From Chloroflexota bacterium (GTDB taxonomy: Bacteria; Chloroflexota; Anaerolineae; J102), in contig JAKOVD010000069.1 of the NCBI GenBank assembly GCA_029782215.1, positions 1 through 32,000 of the forward strand: DNA of 32,000 bases, in the 5' to 3' direction. Every line of letters begins with the position of its first letter. Positions within the stretch are counted from its first letter, which is position 1. Below the pieces are notes generated by a model. It was not told the DNA's origin. It did not search any database and saw only the letters and a list, made by a program, of their open reading frames with translations. A program made the position numbers and the translations under genes. Shown piece by piece: positions 1,830-15,978 of this stretch.

Positions 1830-1850
1830 ACGCACGCTGGCAGTTCTGGA
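1826..1850 (+). pseudogene. Orphaned native 5' end of the oxoprolinase gene (M-N-A-R-W-Q-F-W), cut off by the island insertion
   Basis: ATGAACGCACGCTGGCAGTTCTGGA encodes MNARWQFW, the same WQFW that opens the intact gene at 12295. After 1850 the frame runs into island DNA and stops at 1879. Confidence 0.65.
1838..1850 (+). repeat. attL core (TGGCAGTTCTGGA)
   Basis: Identical to 12295-12307. The match extends to 20 bp with 3 mismatches (CGCAcgcTGGCAGTTCTGGA vs CGCAaagTGGCAGTTCTGGA). Confidence 0.75.
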
Positions 1851-1910
1851 CTAAAAACTGCACACAAAAACCGCTGTAAAAACAACGCACTAGCGTTACG
1901 CTTTGGGCTG

Positions 1911-1928
1911 TGTCAACATTTTGTCAAC
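1911..1928 (+). promoter_or_regulatory. Putative integrase arm-type site pair (TGTCAAC-N4-TGTCAAC)
   Basis: TGTCAAC at 1911-1917 and 1922-1928, 11 bp apart, just upstream of the integrase start and flanked by GGGCTG/CAGCCC. The same motif pairs recur at the other island end. Confidence 0.55.
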
Positions 1929-1934
1929 AGCCCC

Positions 1935-3194
1935 TTGTCTGCAATACAGCGCATCGCGGACGGCAACATAAGCGTCTTTACGAGGCCCTTGGTCAAGGGC
2001 GACGTCTACTACGCCCGATACAGAATCACGAACAAGCGTGTGGCCGATGGCCAGCGGTACGTGACCGAGAGCCTCGACACGACAGACGAAGGCATTGCAC
2101 TCGACCGCGCTCGGCAGCGATACGCCGAAATCAAGGCGGCAGAGAAGGCAAACAAGGCCATCAAGAGTGGCAGCGTCAGTGCCGAGATCGACGCCTTCAT
2201 TGAAGCATACGAAGACGGCGTGAAGAAGGGACTGCGGCGGCACTCGGAGCACATGCTGCGAGGGTTCCGCAAGTCCATCGTCCGTTACTTCAAGGAGTAC
2301 ATCGGGCGGAAGAACATCCAGGACGTGACGGCCCAAGACCTCGAAGAGTACGAGGCATGGCGTCACGGCTACTGGGCGGCGAAGGCAGCTGCGGGTGACA
2401 AGGTGCACGGCAACGCCAAGGAGCGCCCGTCACAGCGCACCATTGAATGGGAAGTCGGTGCCTTCAAGCAGTTCCTGCGATGGGCAAGCGAGCGGGGCCG
2501 CTACAACGGCAACGCCCTGACGTTCAAGTTCACCGTCGACAAGAAGCAAGCTCGTTCGGCGTTCACGGACGAGCAACTCGACACCCTGGCGAACTTCACC
2601 CGGCGCAAGTCATGGGTCCAAGGCGTTGGCAAGCACGGGCACGATGCCCGGCTCACGCGGTACAGAGAGATGTTGCGTGCCTACGTGTTCTTCATGGCCG
2701 GTACGGGCCTGCGTCCGGGTGAAGCCCGCAATCTGCGTTGGCGCGACATCAAGTACACGCAGGGGGCCGACGAGCAGGAAGCAGTGCATGTCATCGTCGA
2801 AGCGACGCACAGCAAGGTCAAGAAGAAGCGGATTGCAGTCGGCCTCGACATTGCGGCGATGGCGATCAGCGGCTTGCAGGGCCGGCGGCGCGCAGCGAAG
2901 GACTACGCCGGAGATGACGACTATGTTTGGTGCGACACCGACGGTGAGGTCATCAAGGACTTCCGCGAAGGGTTCAACAACCTGATCAAAGCCGCAGGCG
3001 TTGAAACGGACTCGCAGGGCAAGAAGCTAGCCATCTACTCGCTGCGGCACTACTACATCTCGCATCGCATCAGGCATGGCGTCGATGCGTATCGGCTGGC
3101 GAAGGCAACGGGCACGAGCCCGGACATGATCCAACGCTTCTACGACCATGTAGAGACGCCGGACATGACCGATGAGTTGACGAAGTATCGCTAG
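1935..3194 (+). CDS. int: Tyrosine recombinase / phage-type integrase
   Basis: 419-aa ORF with a TTG start that is uncertain (no clear SD). C-terminal catalytic motifs are present: GLRPGEARNLRWRDI (Arg I), YSLRHYYISHRI (Arg II/His) and TSPDMIQRFYDHV (Tyr nucleophile). It lies at the island edge. Confidence 0.9.
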   Translation: MSAIQRIADGNISVFTRPLVKGDVYYARYRITNKRVADGQRYVTESLDTTDEGIALDRARQRYAEIKAAEKANKAIKSGSVSAEIDAFIEAYEDGVKKGLRRHSEHMLRGFRKSIVRYFKEYIGRKNIQDVTAQDLEEYEAWRHGYWAAKAAAGDKVHGNAKERPSQRTIEWEVGAFKQFLRWASERGRYNGNALTFKFTVDKKQARSAFTDEQLDTLANFTRRKSWVQGVGKHGHDARLTRYREMLRAYVFFMAGTGLRPGEARNLRWRDIKYTQGADEQEAVHVIVEATHSKVKKKRIAVGLDIAAMAISGLQGRRRAAKDYAGDDDYVWCDTDGEVIKDFREGFNNLIKAAGVETDSQGKKLAIYSLRHYYISHRIRHGVDAYRLAKATGTSPDMIQRFYDHVETPDMTDELTKYR

Positions 3195-3242
3195 GACTGT
3201 CGTGGCACGACGTACGATGGCCGTTCGGAGGAGCACAAACGA

Positions 3243-4637
3243 ATGAGCAGCTTGGACGACTCGCAGATTGCTGTAGCAACCAAGGCATTGCACGACTACA
3301 TGGGCGCGGTAGCCGATCCGGCTACAGGGCAAACGCCCGCCGAGGCAGCGGCGACGCTGGATGCGAATCGTCGCAGCTTGATCGCCGGTAGGCTGGGCGA
3401 TCTGGTCCGCGGCTTTTGCAGTGGTGCGATTGCACTATCCGACTTCAAGCCTGAACTTGACGGACTGAACAAGCGCAACGAGTTCTGGGGCTTCAGCGGC
3501 ATCAAGGGCCAGATGTTCTTCAATCTGCTCTTCAATGCGGCGGGAGACGAGAAGGAGTTGACCGCCGAACTCAGGGCAGCGATCGTGCTGCCCGAGACAG
3601 AGGAAATTGCGCGAAGTCGAATTCGGAACTTCACAAGCTATGTGCGCCGAATCGGTGAGGTCTTGGTCGAGAACGGCGGAAGCAAGCATTCAAGGCCGAA
3701 GGTCACAAGCATCCCCTTCTTCCTGAGCTACTTCTGGCAAGTGCAAGCACCGGATCGTTGGTCGATCTACTACACCAACAGCGTGCGGGTATTGGGTGAT
3801 CTGAACCTGTTTCAAGAGAAGGACGACATCGCTGAGTCCTACAGCGACTACCAGCGCCTGCATGAGGAACTGCGTGACCTGTTCTCAACAATTGCTGCTC
3901 GGCCGATGTCACTGTACGACGTGGAGCACGTATGGTCCTTCGTCGCAAAGGGGCAACTCAATGCCGTGATTGCTGCGCCCGTTGTGTCTCAAGCGCGAGC
4001 GCCGGCGGCAGCCAAAGGCGGTGCGCTACAAGCACCTGTACAAGTGAAGCTGCCAGATAGCTATGTGCCACCCATCGTGGCCGTAATCCCGCAACTTGCT
4101 ACGAACGACCCTGCGCTTGAAGAAGCTGCGAAGGCATCTGGAACAAGCATCCCCCGTGCACTGGAGAAGAGCATCAATGCCGCCTTCACGATGCTTGGCT
4201 ACGAAACGACGCTTCTAGGTCAGGGGGCCGGCCGGGTGCAGGATGGGCTTGCAATCTCGGCTGACGATTCCTACGCGATCCTGTGGGACGCGAAGGCGCG
4301 TCAAGGCGGCTACAAGATGGGCACGGATGACCGAACGATCCGCGACTACATCACGACGCAAAGCCGTGATCTCAAGAAGCGGCGGCGCTTTCGGAATCTC
4401 TACTACGTCATCGTCTCCAGCGGCTTCCAAGACGACTTCGATGACCTGATCCGGGGGCTGAAGATGGAAACCGACGTCAACGAAGTCTGTCTCATTGAGG
4501 CTGATGCACTGGTCGCAATGGTTGACGCCAAGCTGCGCGACCCGAGTCAGGTAACGCTTGGGCCAGATGGACTACAGCGCCTGCTGTGCCGTAGTGGAAC
4601 CCTGACTGCAGACATCGTGCGGGAAGAGATGGCTTGA
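3243..4637 (+). CDS. Two-domain nuclease: unassigned N-terminal domain (~aa 1-240), Ala/Pro linker, and a FokI-like PD-(D/E)xK cleavage domain (~aa 296-464)
   Basis: SD GGAGGA lies upstream of the ATG. The C-terminus aligns by eye with the FokI cleavage domain: ALEKSINAAFTMLGYETTLLGQGAGRVQDGLAISADDSYAILWDAKARQGGYKMGTDDRTIRDYI...YYVIVSSGF...VCLIEADALV...SGTLTADIVREEM. D334, D349 and K351 sit where FokI has D450, D467 and K469. Confidence 0.8.
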   Translation: MSSLDDSQIAVATKALHDYMGAVADPATGQTPAEAAATLDANRRSLIAGRLGDLVRGFCSGAIALSDFKPELDGLNKRNEFWGFSGIKGQMFFNLLFNAAGDEKELTAELRAAIVLPETEEIARSRIRNFTSYVRRIGEVLVENGGSKHSRPKVTSIPFFLSYFWQVQAPDRWSIYYTNSVRVLGDLNLFQEKDDIAESYSDYQRLHEELRDLFSTIAARPMSLYDVEHVWSFVAKGQLNAVIAAPVVSQARAPAAAKGGALQAPVQVKLPDSYVPPIVAVIPQLATNDPALEEAAKASGTSIPRALEKSINAAFTMLGYETTLLGQGAGRVQDGLAISADDSYAILWDAKARQGGYKMGTDDRTIRDYITTQSRDLKKRRRFRNLYYVIVSSGFQDDFDDLIRGLKMETDVNEVCLIEADALVAMVDAKLRDPSQVTLGPDGLQRLLCRSGTLTADIVREEMA

Positions 4638-4671
4638 TCCGCAGCGTGGGTCACCGGTTCCCGGCTTCCGG

Positions 4672-4995
4672 CTACGGCTTGCTGATGTTCGCGATGACAT
4701 GGCCGGTGTAGTGCCGATGCAGCTTCCACCTGCCCGTGATCGTGACGTGCATCCAGCTAGTGGGGGGCTTTCGGCCGAACCAAAGGCAGTTGACCTCTGC
4801 GCGGGTCAAGCCATCCCTGTAGGTGCTGAAGGGAACAGGTACGTCGGACAGTTCGAAGAAGCCCGAGACCTCTGCGTTGCGGATGGATGCGCTGTTGACT
4901 TCGAGGACGAGGGCGTTCTTGACTTGCCGCTCCGACGTAGGCACAGCCGAACGGCATGTGTGAACGATGCCGCTCCAGTCGATGTTCGATTCCAT
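4672..4995 (-). CDS. Hypothetical protein (107 aa)
   Basis: GGAG lies 7 nt upstream of the ATG at 4995. The sequence has normal amino-acid composition, unlike the overlapping plus-strand ORF. No family recognised. Confidence 0.55.
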   Translation of the reverse strand: MESNIDWSGIVHTCRSAVPTSERQVKNALVLEVNSASIRNAEVSGFFELSDVPVPFSTYRDGLTRAEVNCLWFGRKPPTSWMHVTITGRWKLHRHYTGHVIANISKP

Positions 4996-5089
4996 CAGTT
5001 CGCTCCATCTTGTGTCATCGGCGGGATATCGACGGACTCGAAGCCGGGTTTAGCAGCCGACGCTGGCAAGAAGTGAAGAGGTGCGCGTC

Positions 5090-5851
5090 ATGACCGAGGA
5101 ATGGGTCAGCCTTTGGTATCAGTGTCTGACGCAGAACATCGACTACTCGCTTTACTGCGCTGCACGCGAAGAAGGCGACGATGCGAAGTGCGCAGAGCTT
5201 GAAGCGAAGTTCGACAAGATCGCCTCCATCTACGAAGACTTTGGCACGCTCGACGGCTGGCCCGAGGCTGGCATGCAGAGCGAGCTATGGCGGGAGTGGT
5301 TCGAGCCGCGGCGACACCTGTTCATGTCGTCGCCGCGAGTCGTGTCCGACTTGCAGCGGTACGAGGCAAGACCCGGGTACGTACTGCTGGATGTGCCCGT
5401 GCAAGACGACGCCAAGGCAACAGCCGAATTGGTCGCTGCTCTGATAGAGAAGCAGCGACTCTCAGGCGGGACGCAGGCGGCGCCGATGCCGAAGTACACG
5501 CTGCGAGAGGTGGGCAGCAAGGTCGCGCACGGCCTGCAACAGGTAAGGCAAGCCTGTCGATCAGTGGCCCGCAGCTACCGGTACGACCCCGACACGTTCG
5601 AGGAACTGCGTCACGTTGATGCAGTCGCCGCCTTCGTCCGGCACGAGATCGACAACATGGGTTGGACGCTCGACCCGAAGGCCAGGGCTGAACTCGACAG
5701 CACCGGCCGCCTGTCCGAGCAGCGATTGGAGAGCTTCAGGGCCATGTTGAACAAGTGCCGGCGCGACTTCAGGGCGTTTGCGGCCAACACGATCCGGGCC
5801 AGCTTCCCCGACGACAGGCCGTTTGAGTCGAACGTGCTCGATATTCACTAG
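5090..5851 (+). CDS. Hypothetical protein (253 aa)
   Basis: ATG at 5090 is preceded by GAAGAGG; the track's GTG at 5081 is less likely. Trp/Cys-containing N-terminus (MTEEWVSLWYQCLTQNIDYSLYCAAREE). No family recognised. Confidence 0.75.
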   Translation: MTEEWVSLWYQCLTQNIDYSLYCAAREEGDDAKCAELEAKFDKIASIYEDFGTLDGWPEAGMQSELWREWFEPRRHLFMSSPRVVSDLQRYEARPGYVLLDVPVQDDAKATAELVAALIEKQRLSGGTQAAPMPKYTLREVGSKVAHGLQQVRQACRSVARSYRYDPDTFEELRHVDAVAAFVRHEIDNMGWTLDPKARAELDSTGRLSEQRLESFRAMLNKCRRDFRAFAANTIRASFPDDRPFESNVLDIH

Positions 5852-5962
5852 CTTGGAACAAAACCCAGGGCCTCACTGTTCCATGACTAGCCGGGAGTGA
5901 ATCTCTACAGTCCTTTCCATCGACAGCACTCAAGCAGTCGATTAACTTGAAAGGTCTGATAA

Positions 5963-6397
5963 ATGCAAACGCAAAATAGCTCTGCCCCGGCTCAAAAGGG
6001 GTTTATGTCGCGGCTGTCGGCGCTGGTGCCGAATGCAAAGACGGTGAACAAGCTCTACGTTCAGCGTGGCAAGCGGCACGGTATCGAAGATGCACGTCAA
6101 AGTGTCGCCGAGAAGTTGCGCAAAGCTGCTGCTTACGTGCGTGATCCGAACAGCGTAGAACTTGGTGATAACCCCATCAAGCAGCAGGACGACAACGTTT
6201 ATTCGCTGGGGGTCAAATACTGCAACCGCTGGCTGCAAGGCGTGTTCGACGGGGACACCTACATCGTCGGTCTCAATGCCGAAGAGGTCTGCACGCTCGC
6301 CGAAGAAGCTGCACAGGCGGCACTTGCCGGTGAGTTCGACGACTACATCGAGCGCATTATGGCAGAAAACCGCTCTGCAGCCGCTAAGCGTCGATAA
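5963..6397 (+). CDS. Hypothetical protein (144 aa)
   Basis: ORF with balanced composition in the same direction as its neighbours. An alternative start exists at 6005 (MSRLSALV). No family recognised. Confidence 0.65.
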   Translation: MQTQNSSAPAQKGFMSRLSALVPNAKTVNKLYVQRGKRHGIEDARQSVAEKLRKAAAYVRDPNSVELGDNPIKQQDDNVYSLGVKYCNRWLQGVFDGDTYIVGLNAEEVCTLAEEAAQAALAGEFDDYIERIMAENRSAAAKRR

Positions 6398-6406
6398 ATG
6401 TGTCCT

Positions 6407-6431
6407 GGGGGCGAGGCTTGTACTCGCCCCC
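6407..6431 (+). terminator. Intercistronic GC-rich hairpin (GGGGGCGAG-gcttgta-CTCGCCCCC)
   Basis: Perfect 9-bp stem with a 7-nt loop, 10 nt after the 6397 stop and 16 nt before the 6448 start. There is no T-tract, so it may be an attenuator or RNA-stability element rather than a full terminator. Confidence 0.4.
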
Positions 6432-6447
6432 TCAACAAGGAGCAAAT

Positions 6448-6834
6448 ATGCCAGTACACGAATATCGCGCCGATACGCAGGTCGTCTTGATGGGTCGGAT
6501 ACGTGTGGCGGATTGGAGAAACGAGTTGCGGCACATGGAACTGTCGCTACCCGTAGCAGATTCGCTGCTCAAGAAGCTAGCGTCGGAGGACAACGAGCTT
6601 GGTCTCGGTGCAACTGAACTGTTGGACCTACTTCGAGGTCAAGGGGAGATTTCAGACTACGTGAAACTCTCCGACGCTGGTCAGAAAGTGAATCGTACGC
6701 TGACTGCACTTACGAAGATTGCCTGGGAGCACGACGTGCCCTCAAGCGTCGATGAAGTAGAACGAGCAGAAGGCGACGAATACTTCGACAGTTTCAGTGC
6801 GGCCTACACGGTTTCTGGTGGATCCGCCTCATAG
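6448..6834 (+). CDS. Hypothetical acidic protein (128 aa)
   Basis: ATG at 6448 with a strong SD (AAGGAG, 6437-6442). The track's GTG at 6400 would run through the hairpin. No family recognised. Confidence 0.75.
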   Translation: MPVHEYRADTQVVLMGRIRVADWRNELRHMELSLPVADSLLKKLASEDNELGLGATELLDLLRGQGEISDYVKLSDAGQKVNRTLTALTKIAWEHDVPSSVDEVERAEGDEYFDSFSAAYTVSGGSAS

Positions 6835-7401
6835 TTAAGCGAGTTCCACAGCGCGACGCAGCATGTTGTCGTTTACGTCGATATACCTTTGGGTGGTTTG
6901 AATGGAACGATGGCCCGCAAGGGCGGCCAGTACCCGTACTGAAACCCCTTGCGCGGCCAGGTTCGTTATGAAAGTGCGACGGCCCGAGTGCGACGTAGCT
7001 CCTTCCAGGCCGGCACGCCTGTATAGAGCGATGAAATGCTGAGTCAGGGAGTTTGCGCTGAACCCAGTACGCTTTTGCGTCATGAAGAACGGTGCCGCTG
7101 CATCCCTGGATCGCAGCGTACGAGCGTAGACAGCAAGCTCCTTCTGCAAGCGGTCGTTGACGAACACAACGCGGCCGACGTTGCCCTTCGTTTGATGCGC
7201 ACCTAAGCGCAGCTCGCCCCTGACGCGGCCCTCGGCGTCCAACACGTCGCCCACTCGCAGCGCAGCTACCTCGCCCACCCGCATCCCCGCCAGGTGCGTC
7301 AGCAGCAGCATGGCCTTGTCGCGTGCAGCGTGCCGGGACATGGCAGCTTGCCCGAGTGCGTGTCGCAGTTCCTGCGCTGTCAGCGTTTTAGCTTGCTTCA
7401 T
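6835..7401 (-). CDS. Short tyrosine recombinase (catalytic domain only, 188 aa)
   Basis: ATG at 7401 with GAGG upstream. Motifs: LAGMRVGEVAAL (Arg I), SHSGRRTFITNL (His/Arg II), GHRSIQTTQRYIDV (His/Tyr). There is no N-terminal core-binding domain. Confidence 0.85.
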   Translation of the reverse strand: MKQAKTLTAQELRHALGQAAMSRHAARDKAMLLLTHLAGMRVGEVAALRVGDVLDAEGRVRGELRLGAHQTKGNVGRVVFVNDRLQKELAVYARTLRSRDAAAPFFMTQKRTGFSANSLTQHFIALYRRAGLEGATSHSGRRTFITNLAAQGVSVRVLAALAGHRSIQTTQRYIDVNDNMLRRAVELA

Positions 7402-7690
7402 GCCAAACCTCACTTTTTGTTGTATTCAATGCTAGTTTCTGATGTCGTACTTGGGCAACCTACTTGCGGCATGTACTCGGGCCAATGAATTCAAGCACTT
7501 GCAGCACAACATCAGGATTCGTATGAAATCTGATGTATTCGTGGTCCAAAGACGACAACGTACCCCGACAGCGTAAACGCACGCTGTAGCGTGCAAACCC
7601 CTTCCAGCTACCCCACATGCTGGCGGCTCAAAAAAAGCGCTTGCAGCGCGAATTAGTGCGTCACGTATGCAAGCGTGTTCTATAGCCCTG

Positions 7691-7717
7691 CTTATCCCAC
7701 TTATCCCACTTATCCCA
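7691..7717 (+). repeat. Perfect 3 x 9-bp tandem repeat CTTATCCCA (iteron-like)
   Basis: cttatccca cttatccca cttatccca read directly from the sequence, inside a 612-bp gene-free stretch. Confidence 0.85.
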
Positions 7718-7836
7718 AGCACCTCGCATCAACTCGTGTATTTATCTGCGATCTGTCAGTCACTACTGCTTCTCGATGTCGCTGATACTGACTTCGTGTT
7801 GATCTTGTGTGATTATTGACTGGTCGTGTAGATGTT

Positions 7837-7858
7837 TGATAGTGGTTGGTGATAGTGG
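7837..7858 (+). repeat. Direct repeat TGATAGTGG x2 (13-bp period), with a degenerate third copy TGATACTG at 7783-7790
   Basis: Read directly from the sequence. The reverse complement CCACTATCA resembles the 7691-7717 unit (CCACTTATC) with one T fewer, so this is a second, opposite-orientation repeat set. Confidence 0.7.
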
Positions 7859-7883
7859 GAATGTTTAGACAATGGCTATCGCA

Positions 7884-7903
7884 ATGAGCATCCCTATGCT
7901 CAT
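7884..7903. other. Perfect hairpin ATGAGCAT-CCCT-ATGCTCAT (candidate nick/ori hairpin or terminator)
   Basis: 8-bp perfect inverted repeat with a 4-nt loop, 110 bp downstream of the Rep-like gene stop. Confidence 0.5.
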
Positions 7904-8013
7904 GCGATTCGTCCAAATTTTCATCAAGCTACGTACGCTGACCTTGGCGGTAACCTAAGCGGTCGTTCAGCGCGGCCCGTACATTCTGTTCGGCCTCTAC
8001 GCAGTTGAATTCT

Positions 8014-8517
8014 TCACGGCATCAACGGTTTTGGTATTGACGCTAGGCACCACTCTATGGCCTCGCAGTTTAGTCCGTCTGCTTCTTTGCTGACGTACCA
8101 TGCAAGACCACTGGAGTCGTACATTTCCTTCACATCATACCTCGGGAGTAACCACTGTGATCGGCGTATGTAGCTGCGCATATGTGCATCGAGTTCGGCG
8201 CGAGACTTGACGTTCCCGACCAATATATGCGCATGAATCCGTTTGTTGCCATGCGCGCCCTCAATGATCGGCACGTACAGGACACGGCACTTATCGTTGA
8301 ACTTCGACTTATTACCCCAGATTGCGCTGTTGAGCGTTGCACCGAGGTGCCGTAGCTGCGCTCGTGCCTGCTCGTACGTAGGCTCCAAGCTCAAGTCGTA
8401 CGCCTTCCCGAACGTTACTGTAAGCATGTAGTCCACCCACGGCATGTAGCGATTCAGCATCCGTGCATTCAGGTCCTGCAACGTAGCTAGCGGGACGGAG
8501 ACTTTGTTTTCTGGCAT
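8014..8517 (-). CDS. Small HUH-superfamily Rep-like protein (167 aa); possibly the YagK/YfjJ (inovirus Gp2-like) type seen in integrative islands
   Basis: ATG at 8517 with GAGG 6 nt upstream. Three motifs are in canonical order: MLTVTF (motif I, aa 31-36), RIHAHILVG (HUH, H95/H97) and AWYVSKEADG (YxxK, Y141). No helicase domain. Confidence 0.6.
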   Translation of the reverse strand: MPENKVSVPLATLQDLNARMLNRYMPWVDYMLTVTFGKAYDLSLEPTYEQARAQLRHLGATLNSAIWGNKSKFNDKCRVLYVPIIEGAHGNKRIHAHILVGNVKSRAELDAHMRSYIRRSQWLLPRYDVKEMYDSSGLAWYVSKEADGLNCEAIEWCLASIPKPLMP

Positions 8518-8663
8518 ATAAGACCTCATAGTTCTGTGCACTATTTAGCAAAATCTTAGGTTTGCGGCCTGAAAATGGTTTACTTGCGCTGATTCCCGGT
8601 CGACCTGCTGCTGGTTGAGGGAGCAAAGTTGCGGCATGTGAAACGCAATGGGAAGGAAATCAC

Positions 8664-9125
8664 ATGCAACTCGCAAAGCTCAAGCTGGTGTCCGCAGTGC
8701 GTCGTCGGAAGACGGTTGCCGACATCCGGCGCGACAAGCTGCTGGGCAAGCTGGACGAGCAGATCGGGCTGGCAACTGCGCAGGTCGAAGGCAAGACGTT
8801 CGAAGCCAAGCGAGCCAAGGTCGTCGTGGACGCTGACGGTCGTCGTGGGCGCGAGCTGGTGCCGGCCCGCGTCAAACAGTGGTGGTGGAAGACGAGCGAC
8901 GGCAAGCTGCTGTTCACGATCCAGTACGGCACGAAGCCGCTGGAACTGGCCAAGGGCAAGCCGGCCGTCGAAGTGGGCAACATGCAGGAACTCATCGAGG
9001 CCCTGCAGAGCGTGCGTGCTGCCACCGAGGCCGGCGAGCTTGACGGTCACATCGAGACTGCCAGTGCGTCGCTGGGTGTCGCGTTCAAGCGCAAGACCAG
9101 CAAGGGCGGTGCGCGGGCGCACTGA
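8664..9125 (+). CDS. Hypothetical protein (153 aa)
   Basis: SD GGAAGGA lies upstream of the ATG. Divergent from the Rep-like gene. Sequence includes KQWWWKTSDGKLLFTIQYGTKPLEL. No family recognised with confidence. Confidence 0.75.
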   Translation: MQLAKLKLVSAVRRRKTVADIRRDKLLGKLDEQIGLATAQVEGKTFEAKRAKVVVDADGRRGRELVPARVKQWWWKTSDGKLLFTIQYGTKPLELAKGKPAVEVGNMQELIEALQSVRAATEAGELDGHIETASASLGVAFKRKTSKGGARAH

Positions 9126-9321
9126 CCGGGGCATGCGGCGCAGACAACAGCGCCAGCGTGCGGTTTCAGCGCCGATCAGCGATGAGTCGGTCTGACGCAC
9201 GCACGGGCTGAATGGGAAACGCCCCGGCTCAAGTGCCCGGCGTCGGCCTCAAGGCTGGTGCGTGAGTCGTGGTCAAGGAGCCCGGCCGAGAGCGCGGGCT
9301 TGATGCAACAGGCGTGATGCG

Positions 9322-9486
9322 ATGGACAGGTACAAGGCGACGGTTCGAGTTCAGGCCCCGTCCGGGCATGGCAAGTTGACGACGTGGGCCGAGGTGCGGG
9401 CGTCGAATCCGAACATGGCGCGGCAGCTGCTCGAAGCGCAGTTCGGCCGGGGAAACGTGGTCGGCGTGCCCGTGCGTTGCGGGTAG
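9322..9486 (+). CDS. Small hypothetical protein (54 aa, not in ORF track)
   Basis: My own translation: MDRYKATVRVQAPSGHGKLTTWAEVRASNPNMARQLLEAQFGRGNVVGVPVRCG*. Third codon positions are strongly G/C-biased, which fits coding sequence. The SD is weak. Confidence 0.45.
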   Translation: MDRYKATVRVQAPSGHGKLTTWAEVRASNPNMARQLLEAQFGRGNVVGVPVRCG

Positions 9487-9537
9487 GCTGTGGCCGTGGT
9501 GCTGGGCTAAATACAAGGACAGCACTACGGAGGCAGC

Positions 9538-9747
9538 ATGAGACTTGAGGAGATACAGCCGTCGAACGCGGCGGAGCAACGAGTGAAGAGGATGAAGGCG
9601 AGCGCGAAGGCGGCCAAGGACAGGGCACGACAGCTACAGGCCCAGGCCGACACGAGCGCGGAGCGGTTGGACATGCAGCAGTCGCGGCAGAAGCTGGCGC
9701 AGCTACAGCGCAAGGCAGCATCGTCCACCATCAAGCCTTACACGTGA
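9538..9747 (+). CDS. Small basic, coiled-coil-like hypothetical protein (69 aa)
   Basis: GGAGG lies 4 nt upstream of the ATG. The sequence is Lys/Arg/Gln/Ala-rich and predicted helical. Confidence 0.55.
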   Translation: MRLEEIQPSNAAEQRVKRMKASAKAAKDRARQLQAQADTSAERLDMQQSRQKLAQLQRKAASSTIKPYT

Positions 9748-9949
9748 ACTGCGAACGTCGAGAGAGAGCCACGCCAGCGCCGTGCAGGTGGCAGCGTGGC
9801 AGAAATTGCTGAATTTGTTGGACGCGGCGAAGGGGTGGGCAACGACCGCAGAGTGGACAACCTATGTACGTTTATCCAGTACACTTGACGGGGCCATACG
9901 CGCCTGCAAGACCCAGTTGCTGATGACTCAACGACCAAGATGACTACAC

Positions 9950-10732
9950 ATGGACATGAAGTCTGGTGACCTGTTCGAGCAGGAGACGACTAAGCGCCGG
10001 CGTGTGCAAGGTGGCGTAGCGTCTACCGGCGCAGTGCTCTCTTCACATACGGGCGACAACTCAGAGTTGTTCCCCAAGGTTCTCGCCATGTATGTCCCCA
10101 AAGGGGCACGCATTGCGGACGTGACCTACGGAACGGGTGTGTTCTGGAAGAACGTCGACACGAGCGAGTACGAGTTCCTGCCGTCAGACCTCAAGACCGG
10201 TGTTGATGCGAGGCACCTGCCGTACGAGGACAGCTACCTTGACGCATTTGTTCTTGACCCGCCCTACATGGAAGGTCTATACCGAGACGCTACGTCGAAG
10301 CTGGCCGGTGGCGGGTCGCACGATGCGTTCCGCGAGTACTACTCCAACGGTCAAGCTACGTCGGACAAGACGCTGAAGTACCACGACAAGGTCATCGACA
10401 TGTACATGACGATTGGCCTTGAGGCGCGGCGAACGCTACGTGACGGCGGAGTATTCATCGTCAAGTGCCAAGACGAGGTGAGCGCGAATCGACAGAAGCT
10501 GACGCACGTGGAACTGATCTTTGGGTATGAACAGTTGGGGTTCTACTGCAAAGACCTGTTCGTGCTCACAAGAACAAACAAGCCAGCAGTTGCGCGCCTG
10601 ATCAAACAGGAACACTCCCGCAAGAACCACAGCTACTTCCTGGTCTTCGTCCTGGGCAAAGGGCGGAAGAAGCTGCCATACAGCAACTTCCGGTCATTGC
10701 TGGCGAGCTACGCCGATCGCATCTCAAAGTGA
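9950..10732 (+). CDS. SAM-dependent DNA methyltransferase (DPPY motif; N6-adenine or N4-cytosine)
   Basis: Motif I is IADVTYGTGVFW (aa 55-66) and motif IV is LDPPY (DPPY at aa 103-106, nt 10256-10267). Motif I preceding motif IV with a short gap gives a gamma-like order. An alternative ATG exists at 9956. Confidence 0.85.
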   Translation: MDMKSGDLFEQETTKRRRVQGGVASTGAVLSSHTGDNSELFPKVLAMYVPKGARIADVTYGTGVFWKNVDTSEYEFLPSDLKTGVDARHLPYEDSYLDAFVLDPPYMEGLYRDATSKLAGGGSHDAFREYYSNGQATSDKTLKYHDKVIDMYMTIGLEARRTLRDGGVFIVKCQDEVSANRQKLTHVELIFGYEQLGFYCKDLFVLTRTNKPAVARLIKQEHSRKNHSYFLVFVLGKGRKKLPYSNFRSLLASYADRISK

Positions 10733-11371
10733 CCTTGCAGTTGCAAAGAGGTCCGTACTCCAGTGATCGGTCAATGGGTAGGTGATCTCTTCAGTTGTTG
10801 CAAGCAAGTACCTCTGCTGCTCCGGGGTGTATTTGTTGGAAGTGGTCAGCCGGCAGTTGCGATTGAGCTTGTACGCGAACTCCCAAGTGCCGGTGAACGG
10901 AAAGAGTGGCACGGCAAGGATGTGATAGTCGCCAACACGATAGTTGGTAGTGGTTACGACGTCACCGTTAGGTAGTCTCACGTCACGCTTGTCGCTTCCA
11001 TCGTTCTGTACAACGCCGTGAAGGGCTTGCAGGTCTTCGCGCCATACGATCGAGTTGGTCTGTAACGACTTCAACTGAATCGAGACGCGGCGGCCTTCGA
11101 ACACAAAGTCAGTGTCGACCTTGTTGTTCTCTCTGTCGTGGTCGTCGTGTTGGCGTACATCCGTAATGCGTGGATCGCGCAGCACTGTCTTTCCAAACAT
11201 CTCTTCAGCGATGTAGCCCAAGATCATTCCGCGCAGACTCGGTGCACGCTTGATTGCGAGCACCAGGTCCTCGGGTGGGATAGCGTCAACGATGGTAGAC
11301 ACCCTCTCCCTAGCTGCGACGGCGAGCCTGTGATCAGGGTTCTTCTGGCCTCTTGCCACGCGAGTCGCCAT
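10724..11371 (-). CDS. Putative PD-(D/E)xK restriction endonuclease (215 aa)
   Basis: Convergent with the methylase, with 3' ends overlapping by 9 bp. Candidate catalytic residues are E56/E57 (IAEEMF), D86/D88 (VDTDFVF) and Q99-x-K101 (SIQLKS). Assigned from motif pattern and context only. Confidence 0.6.
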   Translation of the reverse strand: MATRVARGQKNPDHRLAVAARERVSTIVDAIPPEDLVLAIKRAPSLRGMILGYIAEEMFGKTVLRDPRITDVRQHDDHDRENNKVDTDFVFEGRRVSIQLKSLQTNSIVWREDLQALHGVVQNDGSDKRDVRLPNGDVVTTTNYRVGDYHILAVPLFPFTGTWEFAYKLNRNCRLTTSNKYTPEQQRYLLATTEEITYPLTDHWSTDLFATARSL

Positions 11372-11459
11372 ACGAGCATTTCTCCCTCTGTTATCGAGGG
11401 TTCAACCATATCAGACTGTTACGGCGCAGCGATCCAGAAAGCAGGAAGCAGGTGGTTGC

Positions 11460-12005
11460 CTACCAGCGGCGGCCGAAGCGCAGCGCCGCACTGGGCGTCG
11501 ACGCTCGGCTGAGAAGCTCTTGGTACGTATCCACGACCCCATCAATGCACGATGCGACTGCTTGTAGGTCCAGGGATCGATCGACAGCGAAGCCTTCGGC
11601 TGCAAAGGAACTTCCGTATCGCGGCGCAGCGTGTCCAAAGTGCTCAGGTAGGTAGTCGCTGACCAAGGGTCGAGGAAGGACTGGTTGCCAAAACGAGGGT
11701 TCGGAGGCGGACTCGCTCGCACCGTACGCAACGAGTAGCACTGACGCCGCCTTGAAGTAGAGCACCGCCGGATAGCTGCCGCGTGCGGGAGAGTGTCCTG
11801 GACCAAAGAAGCCAAGCCACGGAACGCGAGCGGGTGTGCCCTTTCCAAAACTGACTTTGACTCGCAAGGAACGGTACTGCGTCGGGTAGTGGCTGACATA
11901 CAGACTGTTCGACGCCGTTGCTTGCTGCATAAACTTCTCCAGCAACGCGGGCAAGTCGGTGTCAGTGGTCATGGGCGACGGTTGAACTGGGCTGTACGAC
12001 ATCAT
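11460..12005 (-). CDS. Stand-alone DUF3578 / MrcB_N-like DNA-reader domain protein (181 aa)
   Basis: LRVKVSFGKGTPARVPWLGFFGPGHSPARGSYPAVLYFKAASVLLVAYGASE matches my recollection of the DUF3578 signature (vkgSvGqGnwaevPWiai...GyYvvYLF...vyLsL). The start is uncertain (12005 or 11972) and there is no clear SD. Confidence 0.6.
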   Translation of the reverse strand: MMSYSPVQPSPMTTDTDLPALLEKFMQQATASNSLYVSHYPTQYRSLRVKVSFGKGTPARVPWLGFFGPGHSPARGSYPAVLYFKAASVLLVAYGASESASEPSFWQPVLPRPLVSDYLPEHFGHAAPRYGSSFAAEGFAVDRSLDLQAVASCIDGVVDTYQELLSRASTPSAALRFGRRW

Positions 12006-12176
12006 AGGAGGCGAGCTTGTGGGTGCGCATGGCTGCGGCCGGAAAGTCGATCAAGCGACCCAACGCTCATCGATTCCGTCGATGACCACATAGAGAATTT
12101 CTCTGTTGGACGCTGATTGCAGCGGCCACCAGAATGAGCACGTACGACAACGCAAGGGTGCGATCACCAAGGCGTG

Positions 12177-12194
12177 TGTCAACGGATTGTCAAA
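12177..12194 (+). promoter_or_regulatory. Putative integrase arm-type site pair (TGTCAAC-N4-TGTCAAA)
   Basis: Copies at 12177-12183 and 12188-12194, 11 bp apart, in the same orientation as the attL-side pair. Confidence 0.5.
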
Positions 12195-12237
12195 ACCCAC
12201 GTCACGGGCCTGCTGCGCAGTACGTCGAATTCTCGTC

Positions 12238-12255
12238 TGTCAACGCCGTGTCAAC
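12238..12255 (+). promoter_or_regulatory. Putative integrase arm-type site pair (TGTCAAC-N4-TGTCAAC)
   Basis: Copies at 12238-12244 and 12249-12255, 11 bp apart, 40 bp from the attR core. Confidence 0.55.
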
Positions 12256-12267
12256 ACAGTTTTCCCC

Positions 12268-15978
<3,711 letters not shown>

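Follow-up and report, generated by a model that had tools for sequence, protein, structure and literature searches.

A FokI-type nuclease joined to an undescribed helical module, a probable type IV-like restriction enzyme on a Chloroflexota integrase island

What does a FokI-type nuclease recognise when the domain joined to it belongs to no described family and no methylase accompanies it? The question is raised by a gene at 3243..4637 (+) of a 32,000-nucleotide stretch of a Chloroflexota bacterium genome (assembly GCA_029782215.1, contig JAKOVD010000069.1, positions 1 to 32,000), referred to here as the window. The gene product is probably (at odds that we would put near 0.6) a single-chain restriction endonuclease that needs no methylase, depends on modification of its target in the manner of type IV enzymes, and carries a new reader module. 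An initial annotation of the gene, made from the sequence letters, had suggested a single-gene, type IV-like nuclease. That suggestion has gained support, as the same N-terminal module occurs on McrB in an mcrBC operon and with GmrSD_N, Mrr_cat and EVE domains, and no conserved methylase accompanies the family.

In the mechanism proposed here, the helical N-terminal module (N-module) would recognise foreign DNA by an unvarying chemical feature, the most plausible being a base modification or hypermodification not present in the host. The FokI-type PD-(D/E)xK domain would be tethered to the module by a flexible linker of about 30-50 amino acids (aa) and would cut double-stranded DNA only upon dimerisation of two copies, as in FokI. 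Because cutting would depend on dimerisation, two bound molecules would be needed, and the cut would be made some way from the recognised site. That the N-module binds DNA and that the enzyme acts against phage are presumed in this proposal, and the dependence on modification is suggested by architecture and genomic context.

Architecture and the FokI-type cleavage domain

The open reading frame (ORF) is complete, with an ATG start and 464 codons before the stop; the initial annotation had its position, the peptides quoted from it and its residue numbers right throughout. A Shine-Dalgarno-like GGAGGAG (3228..3234, +) can be read directly 9 nt 5' of the ATG, and full-length homologues of 54-81% identity share the start position. 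The AlphaFold2 (AF2) model of the whole protein, with a mean predicted local distance difference test score (pLDDT) of 81.6, falls into three parts. The first is the N-module (aa 1-243; 3243..3971, +), which is all-alpha with 10 helices and is predicted, from the model and from family searches, to be the target-recognition (reader) domain. A disordered linker follows at aa about 244-275 (3972..4067, +), and the remainder is an alpha/beta C-terminal domain (C-domain; aa 276-464; 4068..4634, +). The linker had been described beforehand as rich in Ala and Pro, and this is borne out by the model, in which pLDDT is below 50 over aa 239-267, and by a mean pairwise identity across the family of only 9%, compared with 51% for the N-module and 61% for the C-domain. 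The identities of these two domains co-vary (r 0.84).

A family search of 5.8 billion proteins returned 688 relatives. The 120 best of these are mostly about 460 aa long, cover 94-100% of the query (76% in one case) and, besides an exact copy, are 49-81% identical to it. Precomputed annotation assigns the Pfam family PF09254 (FokI_cleav_dom) to all 120, and their names go no further than "hypothetical protein", "FokI cleavage domain-containing protein" or "restriction endonuclease". PADLOC and NCBIfam scans of the full protein gave no match, and neither did phmmer and profile searches of PDB sequences with the whole protein and the family.

When the AF2 model is compared with PDB structures by Foldseek, FokI (2fok_B) tops the list (E 2.3e-6, probability 1.0, 191 columns). 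The FokI structures 2fok and 1fok take ranks 1-3 (E 2.3e-6 to 4.7e-5, probability 1.0, about 190 columns) and are followed by HindIII and Nt.BspD6I. The C-domain is modelled with a pLDDT of about 78-91. An hhalign comparison of the family profile with FokI residues 384-579, a reference verified to be identical to 1fok and 2fok, gives E 3.1e-4 over 138 columns at 28% identity. A profile search of this kind had been named as the check on an earlier by-eye alignment of the C-terminus with FokI. The relationship is found, the residue pairs proposed by eye are all returned, and FokI is also the best PDB fold. E308 corresponds to E425, D334 to D450, D349-A-K351 to D467-T-K469, KARQGGY to KAYSGGY, and YVIVSSGF to FLFVSGHF.

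The codons for these residues lie at 4164..4166 (+) for E308, 4242..4244 (+) for D334, matching a catalytic residue of FokI, and 4287..4295 (+) for D349-A-K351, likewise matching catalytic positions. All four residues are invariant in a 40-sequence homologue alignment, and so are many positions in the N-terminal part. Across 77 genomic copies, haloarchaeal ones included, each is retained in 74-75 (E308 in 74, and D334, D349 and K351 in 75 each). The segment aligned to the FokI dimer helix (D483/R487) forms a conserved motif, GTDDRxIxEY. With fold and hhalign matches and with catalytic residues kept in nearly every genomic copy, the C-terminus is a FokI-type PD-(D/E)xK cleavage domain under selection for activity.

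N-terminal to the FokI-type core, aa 270-300 (nt about 4050-4142) hold a strongly conserved segment, LPDSYVPPIVAxIPxLAxNDPxLE. It lies outside the hhalign match to FokI and is also found in more distant fusions of the module with a nuclease. A stand-alone FokI-like domain of 180 aa, 37.6% identical to the C-domain of the window protein and without an N-module, is encoded on a Halalkalicoccus plasmid (NZ_CP144463.1; positions 6067-6609 of locus L169). Its gene neighbours encode a DUF262-HNH protein (GmrSD-type), an SF1 helicase-like protein and an Mrr_cat restriction endonuclease, and it may represent a split or partnered version of the system. In nine of 76 homologues (L054, L055, L069, L073, L075, L076, L078, L082 and L084) an internal stop occurs inside the range matched by tblastn; these could be pseudogenes, frameshifts or assembly errors in metagenome-assembled genomes.

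The N-module and the proteins that carry it

Modelled alone, the N-module folds with a pLDDT of 91.4 and a predicted template modelling score (pTM) of 0.88. Foldseek nevertheless finds nothing significant for it in the PDB, where the best E is 0.25 and the template modelling score (TM) is at most 0.31, and no significant neighbour in BFVD. A Pfam scan of 32 N-module members gave no match even at E<=10, and a diverse N-module profile run against PDB sequences returned a single chance match (E 1.6). There is no fold or sequence match to the N-terminal winged helix-turn-helix (wHTH) recognition region of FokI. The domain had been called unrecognised from the outset, and it has no family in Pfam, NCBIfam or PADLOC, in the PDB by sequence or fold, or in BFVD by fold.

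The best-conserved motif of the module is a Gly/aromatic loop-helix signature, W82-G-F-x-G-x-K-G-Q-M-F-F-N94 (3486..3524, +), identified from alignments. Within it, W82, G83, F84, G86, G89, M91, F92, F93 and N94 are each at least 85% conserved in 105 diverse modules and near-invariant in the close family; the loop has low pLDDT in AF2 models. The best-conserved residues of the module as a whole are aromatic or Gly (WGFxGxKGQMFFN, FxSxFW, P174, Y177, Y200), and R43, N94, S162 and E228 also belong to this set.

It may be that the N-module is a diverged, inactive HhH-GPD DNA-glycosylase-like sensor, comparable to iEndoIII, that reads hypermodified purines. This would be compatible with a type IV-like enzyme, and we consider it doubtful. 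Glycosylase-like sensors joined to PLD, PD-DExK or McrB are already on record (PMC12191111). A Gly-rich hairpin occurs between two N-module helices, and the top Foldseek matches, although insignificant, recur among such proteins: MjOgg 3knt (E 0.25), DUF2419/Qng1, SsOgg, MagIII and MutY. However, these matches have TM values of 0.19-0.31, E values of 0.25-3 and a root-mean-square deviation of about 14 A, and no Pfam HhH-GPD signal is present in the 32 members at E<=10. An hhalign comparison of the 105-sequence module profile with a verified E. coli EndoIII yields a probability of 0.2%. Additionally, helices 3 and 4 flank the putative hairpin, whereas in the EndoIII topology the hairpin has a different place.

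A phmmer search with aa 1-240 against 1.84 billion representatives matched 420 clusters (50% identity level), 150 of which are listed. Among these 150, the proteins are about 90-1459 aa long, the shortest being fragments, and the module is nearly always N-terminal. Pfam domains on 77 longer N-module proteins comprise AAA_5 (25), FokI_cleav_dom (21), GmrSD_N (2), Mrr_cat (2) and EVE (2), and both EVE-module-AAA_5 and module-EVE-AAA_5 architectures are seen. PF09254 is detected in other N-module fusions with E values down to 5.2e-14. An McrB-type signature is present in 17 of the 150 representatives scanned (MNTADRS in 15, MNTADKS and MNTLDKA in the other two), in all cases together with a Walker A motif, and by this signature the AAA_5 partners of the N-module can be identified as McrB.

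In a metagenomic locus, L102, an McrC gene (PF10117, E 1.8e-17) comes directly after, and overlaps, a module-McrB gene whose module is matched at E 2e-48. This is the one locus in which adjacency of McrC to module-McrB could be checked. A metagenome scan with a module-McrB query recovered mostly McrB proteins bearing other N-terminal domains, and only L102 and L126 were informative; L145 and L153 do contain McrC but lack the N-module, and were discarded as module-McrB loci. A second McrC candidate, the gene 3' of a module-AAA_5 gene on a Natronosalvus plasmid, has no Pfam match and is unconfirmed. In the McrB homologue of L102 (1300-4305) the N-module begins about 320 residues into the frame, and the preceding region, which has no Pfam match, may be a further uncharacterised domain or the product of an over-extended frame.

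Specificity in McrBC resides in the N-terminal domain of McrB, which reads DNA modification (PMC11090510, PMC7641849). The N-module therefore stands in the place of the reader in several canonical type IV architectures. The gene studied here likewise pairs such a putative reader with a nuclease, its module being shared with McrB, GmrSD_N, Mrr_cat and EVE proteins, and across 76 genomic loci the family stands alone, with no cognate methyltransferase.

A FokI-type cleavage domain is also what type IIS enzymes have, and the N-module could instead be a novel sequence-recognition domain of a type IIS-like, sequence-specific enzyme, with the gene for its cognate methyltransferase at another place in the genome. 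Methylases adjoin a few homologues, and a weak N6_N4 methylase-like ORF lies on the same island 5.3 kb from the gene. However, no methylase is conserved across the 76 loci, and the all-alpha N-module is unrelated to the wHTH recognition domain of FokI. With 51% identity against 61% for the C-domain and an r of 0.84 between them, the recognition part is not hypervariable, as a sequence-specificity domain would be; it is well conserved across phyla and diverges together with the nuclease, unlike specificity domains that change with their target. This pattern fits a constant ligand and not a variable DNA sequence. McrB, GmrSD and Mrr, which share the module, are all methylase-independent. The missing methylase and the conserved N-module make a type IIS identity with an unlinked methylase quite improbable.

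Genomic neighbours and the integrase island

Relatives occur in 179 of 185,579 genomes (one genome per species), spread over more than 10 phyla and the Halobacteria. The carriers include Proteobacteria, Planctomycetota, Acidobacteriota, Verrucomicrobiota, Armatimonadota, Zixibacteria, Chloroflexota, Cloacimonadota, NC10 and Halobacteria. This patchy spread fits a horizontally transferred defence gene; phage records contained no homologue.

Whether homologues sit in defence islands, and with which neighbours, had been left by the initial annotation as a check, and defence or mobile-element company is indeed seen. One locus has CBASS, ParE/RelB and Tn3 alongside; another, on a Tn7-like element, has SRA_ScoMcrA and DUF4365-PLD; a third has PLD and HSDR_N proteins near. 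In a blast clustering of neighbours across the 76 loci, the only ones to recur are the type I genes hsdS, hsdM and hsdR, found within four genes in 16 loci. In the other 60, the 102 immediate neighbours represent 92 Pfam families, of which none is seen more than three times, and DNA methylase domains are present in about four of these neighbours. No conserved methylase or other partner was found among the 76 loci.

A Lamassu system with a FokI-type LmuA (a subtype name of the DefenseFinder nomenclature) was considered and rejected, as there is no PADLOC match and no conserved neighbour of any kind, where an adjacent SMC-like ATPase, LmuB, and an LmuA C-terminal domain would be expected. An obligate guard gene of hsd operons, resembling PrrC, was rejected as well: hsd genes are nearby in just those 16 loci, and there are none near the window copy.

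Several observations weigh against a type IV-like, DNA-reading enzyme. Fold, Pfam and PDB searches reveal no recognisable DNA-binding fold in the N-module, which is acidic (median isoelectric point about 5.5, net charge -4) and in which R43 is the sole basic residue conserved at 80% or more across the 105 diverse modules. In module-EVE-McrB proteins, EVE might be the true reader, with the N-module doing something else. The initial annotation had called for a search of defence-system models, and PADLOC has no model for the protein. On the window protein alone, PF09254 scores 14.9 bits (E 0.018, aa 318-432), short of the Pfam cut-off of 25. Finally, embedding with hsd genes in about a fifth of loci raises the possibility of functional coupling to the Hsd complex.

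That coupling is central to a different model, in which the protein is a trigger-activated guard or abortive-infection nuclease. What the N-module senses would not be DNA; it could, for instance, be the state of a type I restriction-modification (R-M) complex or a phage anti-restriction protein. Sensing would free or dimerise the non-specific FokI-type domain, leading to DNA degradation. PrrC with EcoprrI is a precedent for the guarding of a type I R-M complex. In about 12 of the 76 loci the gene is co-directional within the hsd operon, and in four (L017, L062, L063 and L065) its start abuts or overlaps the hsdS stop. About a sixth of the homologues resemble PrrC in being embedded in such operons, often with translationally coupled spacing. 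The acidity of the N-module and its lack of a DNA-binding fold would suit such a role too. PrrC, however, is an anticodon nuclease with an ABC-ATPase-like domain, and about 79% of the present loci, the window included, have no type I system nearby. The same N-module is found at the DNA-reader position of McrB and fused to GmrSD_N, Mrr_cat and EVE, and clusters of type IV enzymes and type I systems are known in which the two are not coupled, the E. coli hsd-mcrBC-mrr region being an example. EVE-like (DCD) reader domains also associate with type I systems (PMC7641849). On balance, a guard nuclease is the main rival reading but seems unlikely.

In a broader version, which is more doubtful still, the N-module would be a new sensor fold that responds to something other than DNA, for instance the integrity of type I R-M complexes or the presence of phage anti-restriction proteins, and licenses dimerisation of a non-specific FokI-type nuclease, and proteins such as the module-bearing McrB, GmrSD and Mrr would together with the nuclease form a guard layer behind classical restriction. 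Homologues embedded in hsd operons (with the gene at about 8001-9400) were observed in L013, L017, L029, L045, L061, L062, L063, L065 and L072. The gene orders include R-S-x-gene-M, M-S-gene-x-R and S-gene-R, and a second, unrelated and unannotated ORF is frequently present beside the gene in these operons.

In the window, the gene sits in a stretch of low GC content (about 50-62%, against 70-75% for the genome). It is the second gene, and the first cargo gene after the integrase, of a low-GC island of about 10.46 kb (about 1851-12307). The tyrosine integrase (1935..3194, +; PF00589, E 2.8e-10) is directly upstream and co-directional. A 13-bp direct repeat, TGGCAGTTCTGGA, marks both ends, with a left copy at the GC-content step (1838..1850, +; candidate attL) and a right copy (12295..12307, +; candidate attR) in the 5' end that the island supplies to a hydantoinase/oxoprolinase gene. 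The window holds these two copies and no others, where chance would give 0.01. The insertion lies after codon 8 of that gene. Its orphaned original start, MNARWQFW, stays on the left flank (1826-1850), and the right end of the island (12268-12307) provides a replacement start fused to the hydantoinase/oxoprolinase body, so the gene is kept intact.

Further along the island are a short tyrosine recombinase of 192 aa comprising the catalytic domain only (6835-7413, -), a weak Rep-like ORF (8014-8541, -; PF23343, below threshold) and a DUF6641 protein gene (8664-9125, +). The initial annotation had seen no adjacent methylase, and indeed the closest methylase-like ORF (9950-10732, +) is the N6_N4_Mtase-like one noted above, which scores 24.5 bits against a Pfam cut-off of 26.7. 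A 215-aa ORF without a family match (10724-11371, -) is convergent and overlapping with it, and the two may form a small separate R-M pair on the island. The ORFans at 4672-6834 had been tentatively suggested as partners of the nuclease. This is refuted: in 86 other loci examined they have no homologue, and because none is found near the gene in any other locus, they are not considered partners.

Its position as first cargo within att-like repeats might mean that the nuclease works for the mobile element itself, helping with island maintenance, addiction or homing, for example, instead of defending the host. A homologue in Herbaspirillum aquaticum (L002/L010) is flanked by two copies of DUF6641 and a Rep-like gene, and because both are common to the two loci a related mobile element is suggested there. 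However, most homologues are not beside integrases or the same island genes, and no conserved immunity or antitoxin partner accompanies them, which makes service to the element very improbable.

Relation to known restriction systems and significance

The predicted type IV-like enzyme resembles FokI in the fold of its C-terminal domain, its catalytic residues (E425, D450, D467 and K469 in FokI), the KAxxGGY and hhhVSxxF segments, and the order of recognition domain, linker and C-terminal cleavage domain. It differs in having an all-alpha recognition module in place of wHTH domains and no cognate methyltransferase, and its identity to FokI is 18-28%. The type IV McrBC systems with variable McrB readers (ADAM/DUF3578, EVE, YTH) share the placing of the N-module at the reader position, sometimes in tandem with EVE. 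Unlike in those systems, the module here is fused straight to a nuclease, both the GTPase translocase and McrC are absent, and the module is not among the reader folds described (PMC11090510, PMC7641849).

Closer in organisation are the single-chain modification-dependent enzymes (the MspJI family, PvuRts1I/AbaSI, the EVE-HNH enzyme VcaM4I, winged-helix fusions and DpnI), which also join a reader to a nuclease in two domains and are encoded by stand-alone genes without a methylase in defence-island contexts (PMC6765204, PMC7897488, PMC11037411). Their readers, however, are SRA, PUA, EVE or winged-helix domains, and their nucleases are other PD-(D/E)xK, HNH or Vsr-like domains. END nucleases with an iEndoIII sensor (PMC12191111) offer a parallel for an all-helical sensor that can be fused to varied nucleases or to McrB, with hypermodified phage DNA as the proposed target. 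They differ in that iEndoIII is detectably EndoIII/Ogg-like by HHpred, whereas the N-module is not, and in their PLD or NucS-like nucleases and reversed domain order.

The design of reader plus nuclease is well known among type IV enzymes, and what is new is a FokI-type nuclease joined to an undescribed helical module. No description of the N-module or of its FokI-type fusion architecture was found in the searchable literature, nor any natural type IV enzyme combining a FokI-type domain with this module. If the type IV-like reading is correct, the N-module would be a new, presently unannotated type IV reader that bacteria and archaea carry in no fewer than 420 protein clusters (50% identity level), and the protein would be a natural case of a FokI cleavage domain redirected by a reader other than a winged helix. 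A model of the N-module would allow annotation of many "hypothetical" N-termini of McrB and GmrSD proteins, and the enzyme might become a reagent for mapping DNA modification, as MspJI and AbaSI did. Knowing the target of the module would fill a gap in the list of specificities among modification-dependent enzymes, and would account for a gene that recurs as a passenger in type I R-M operons and defence islands.

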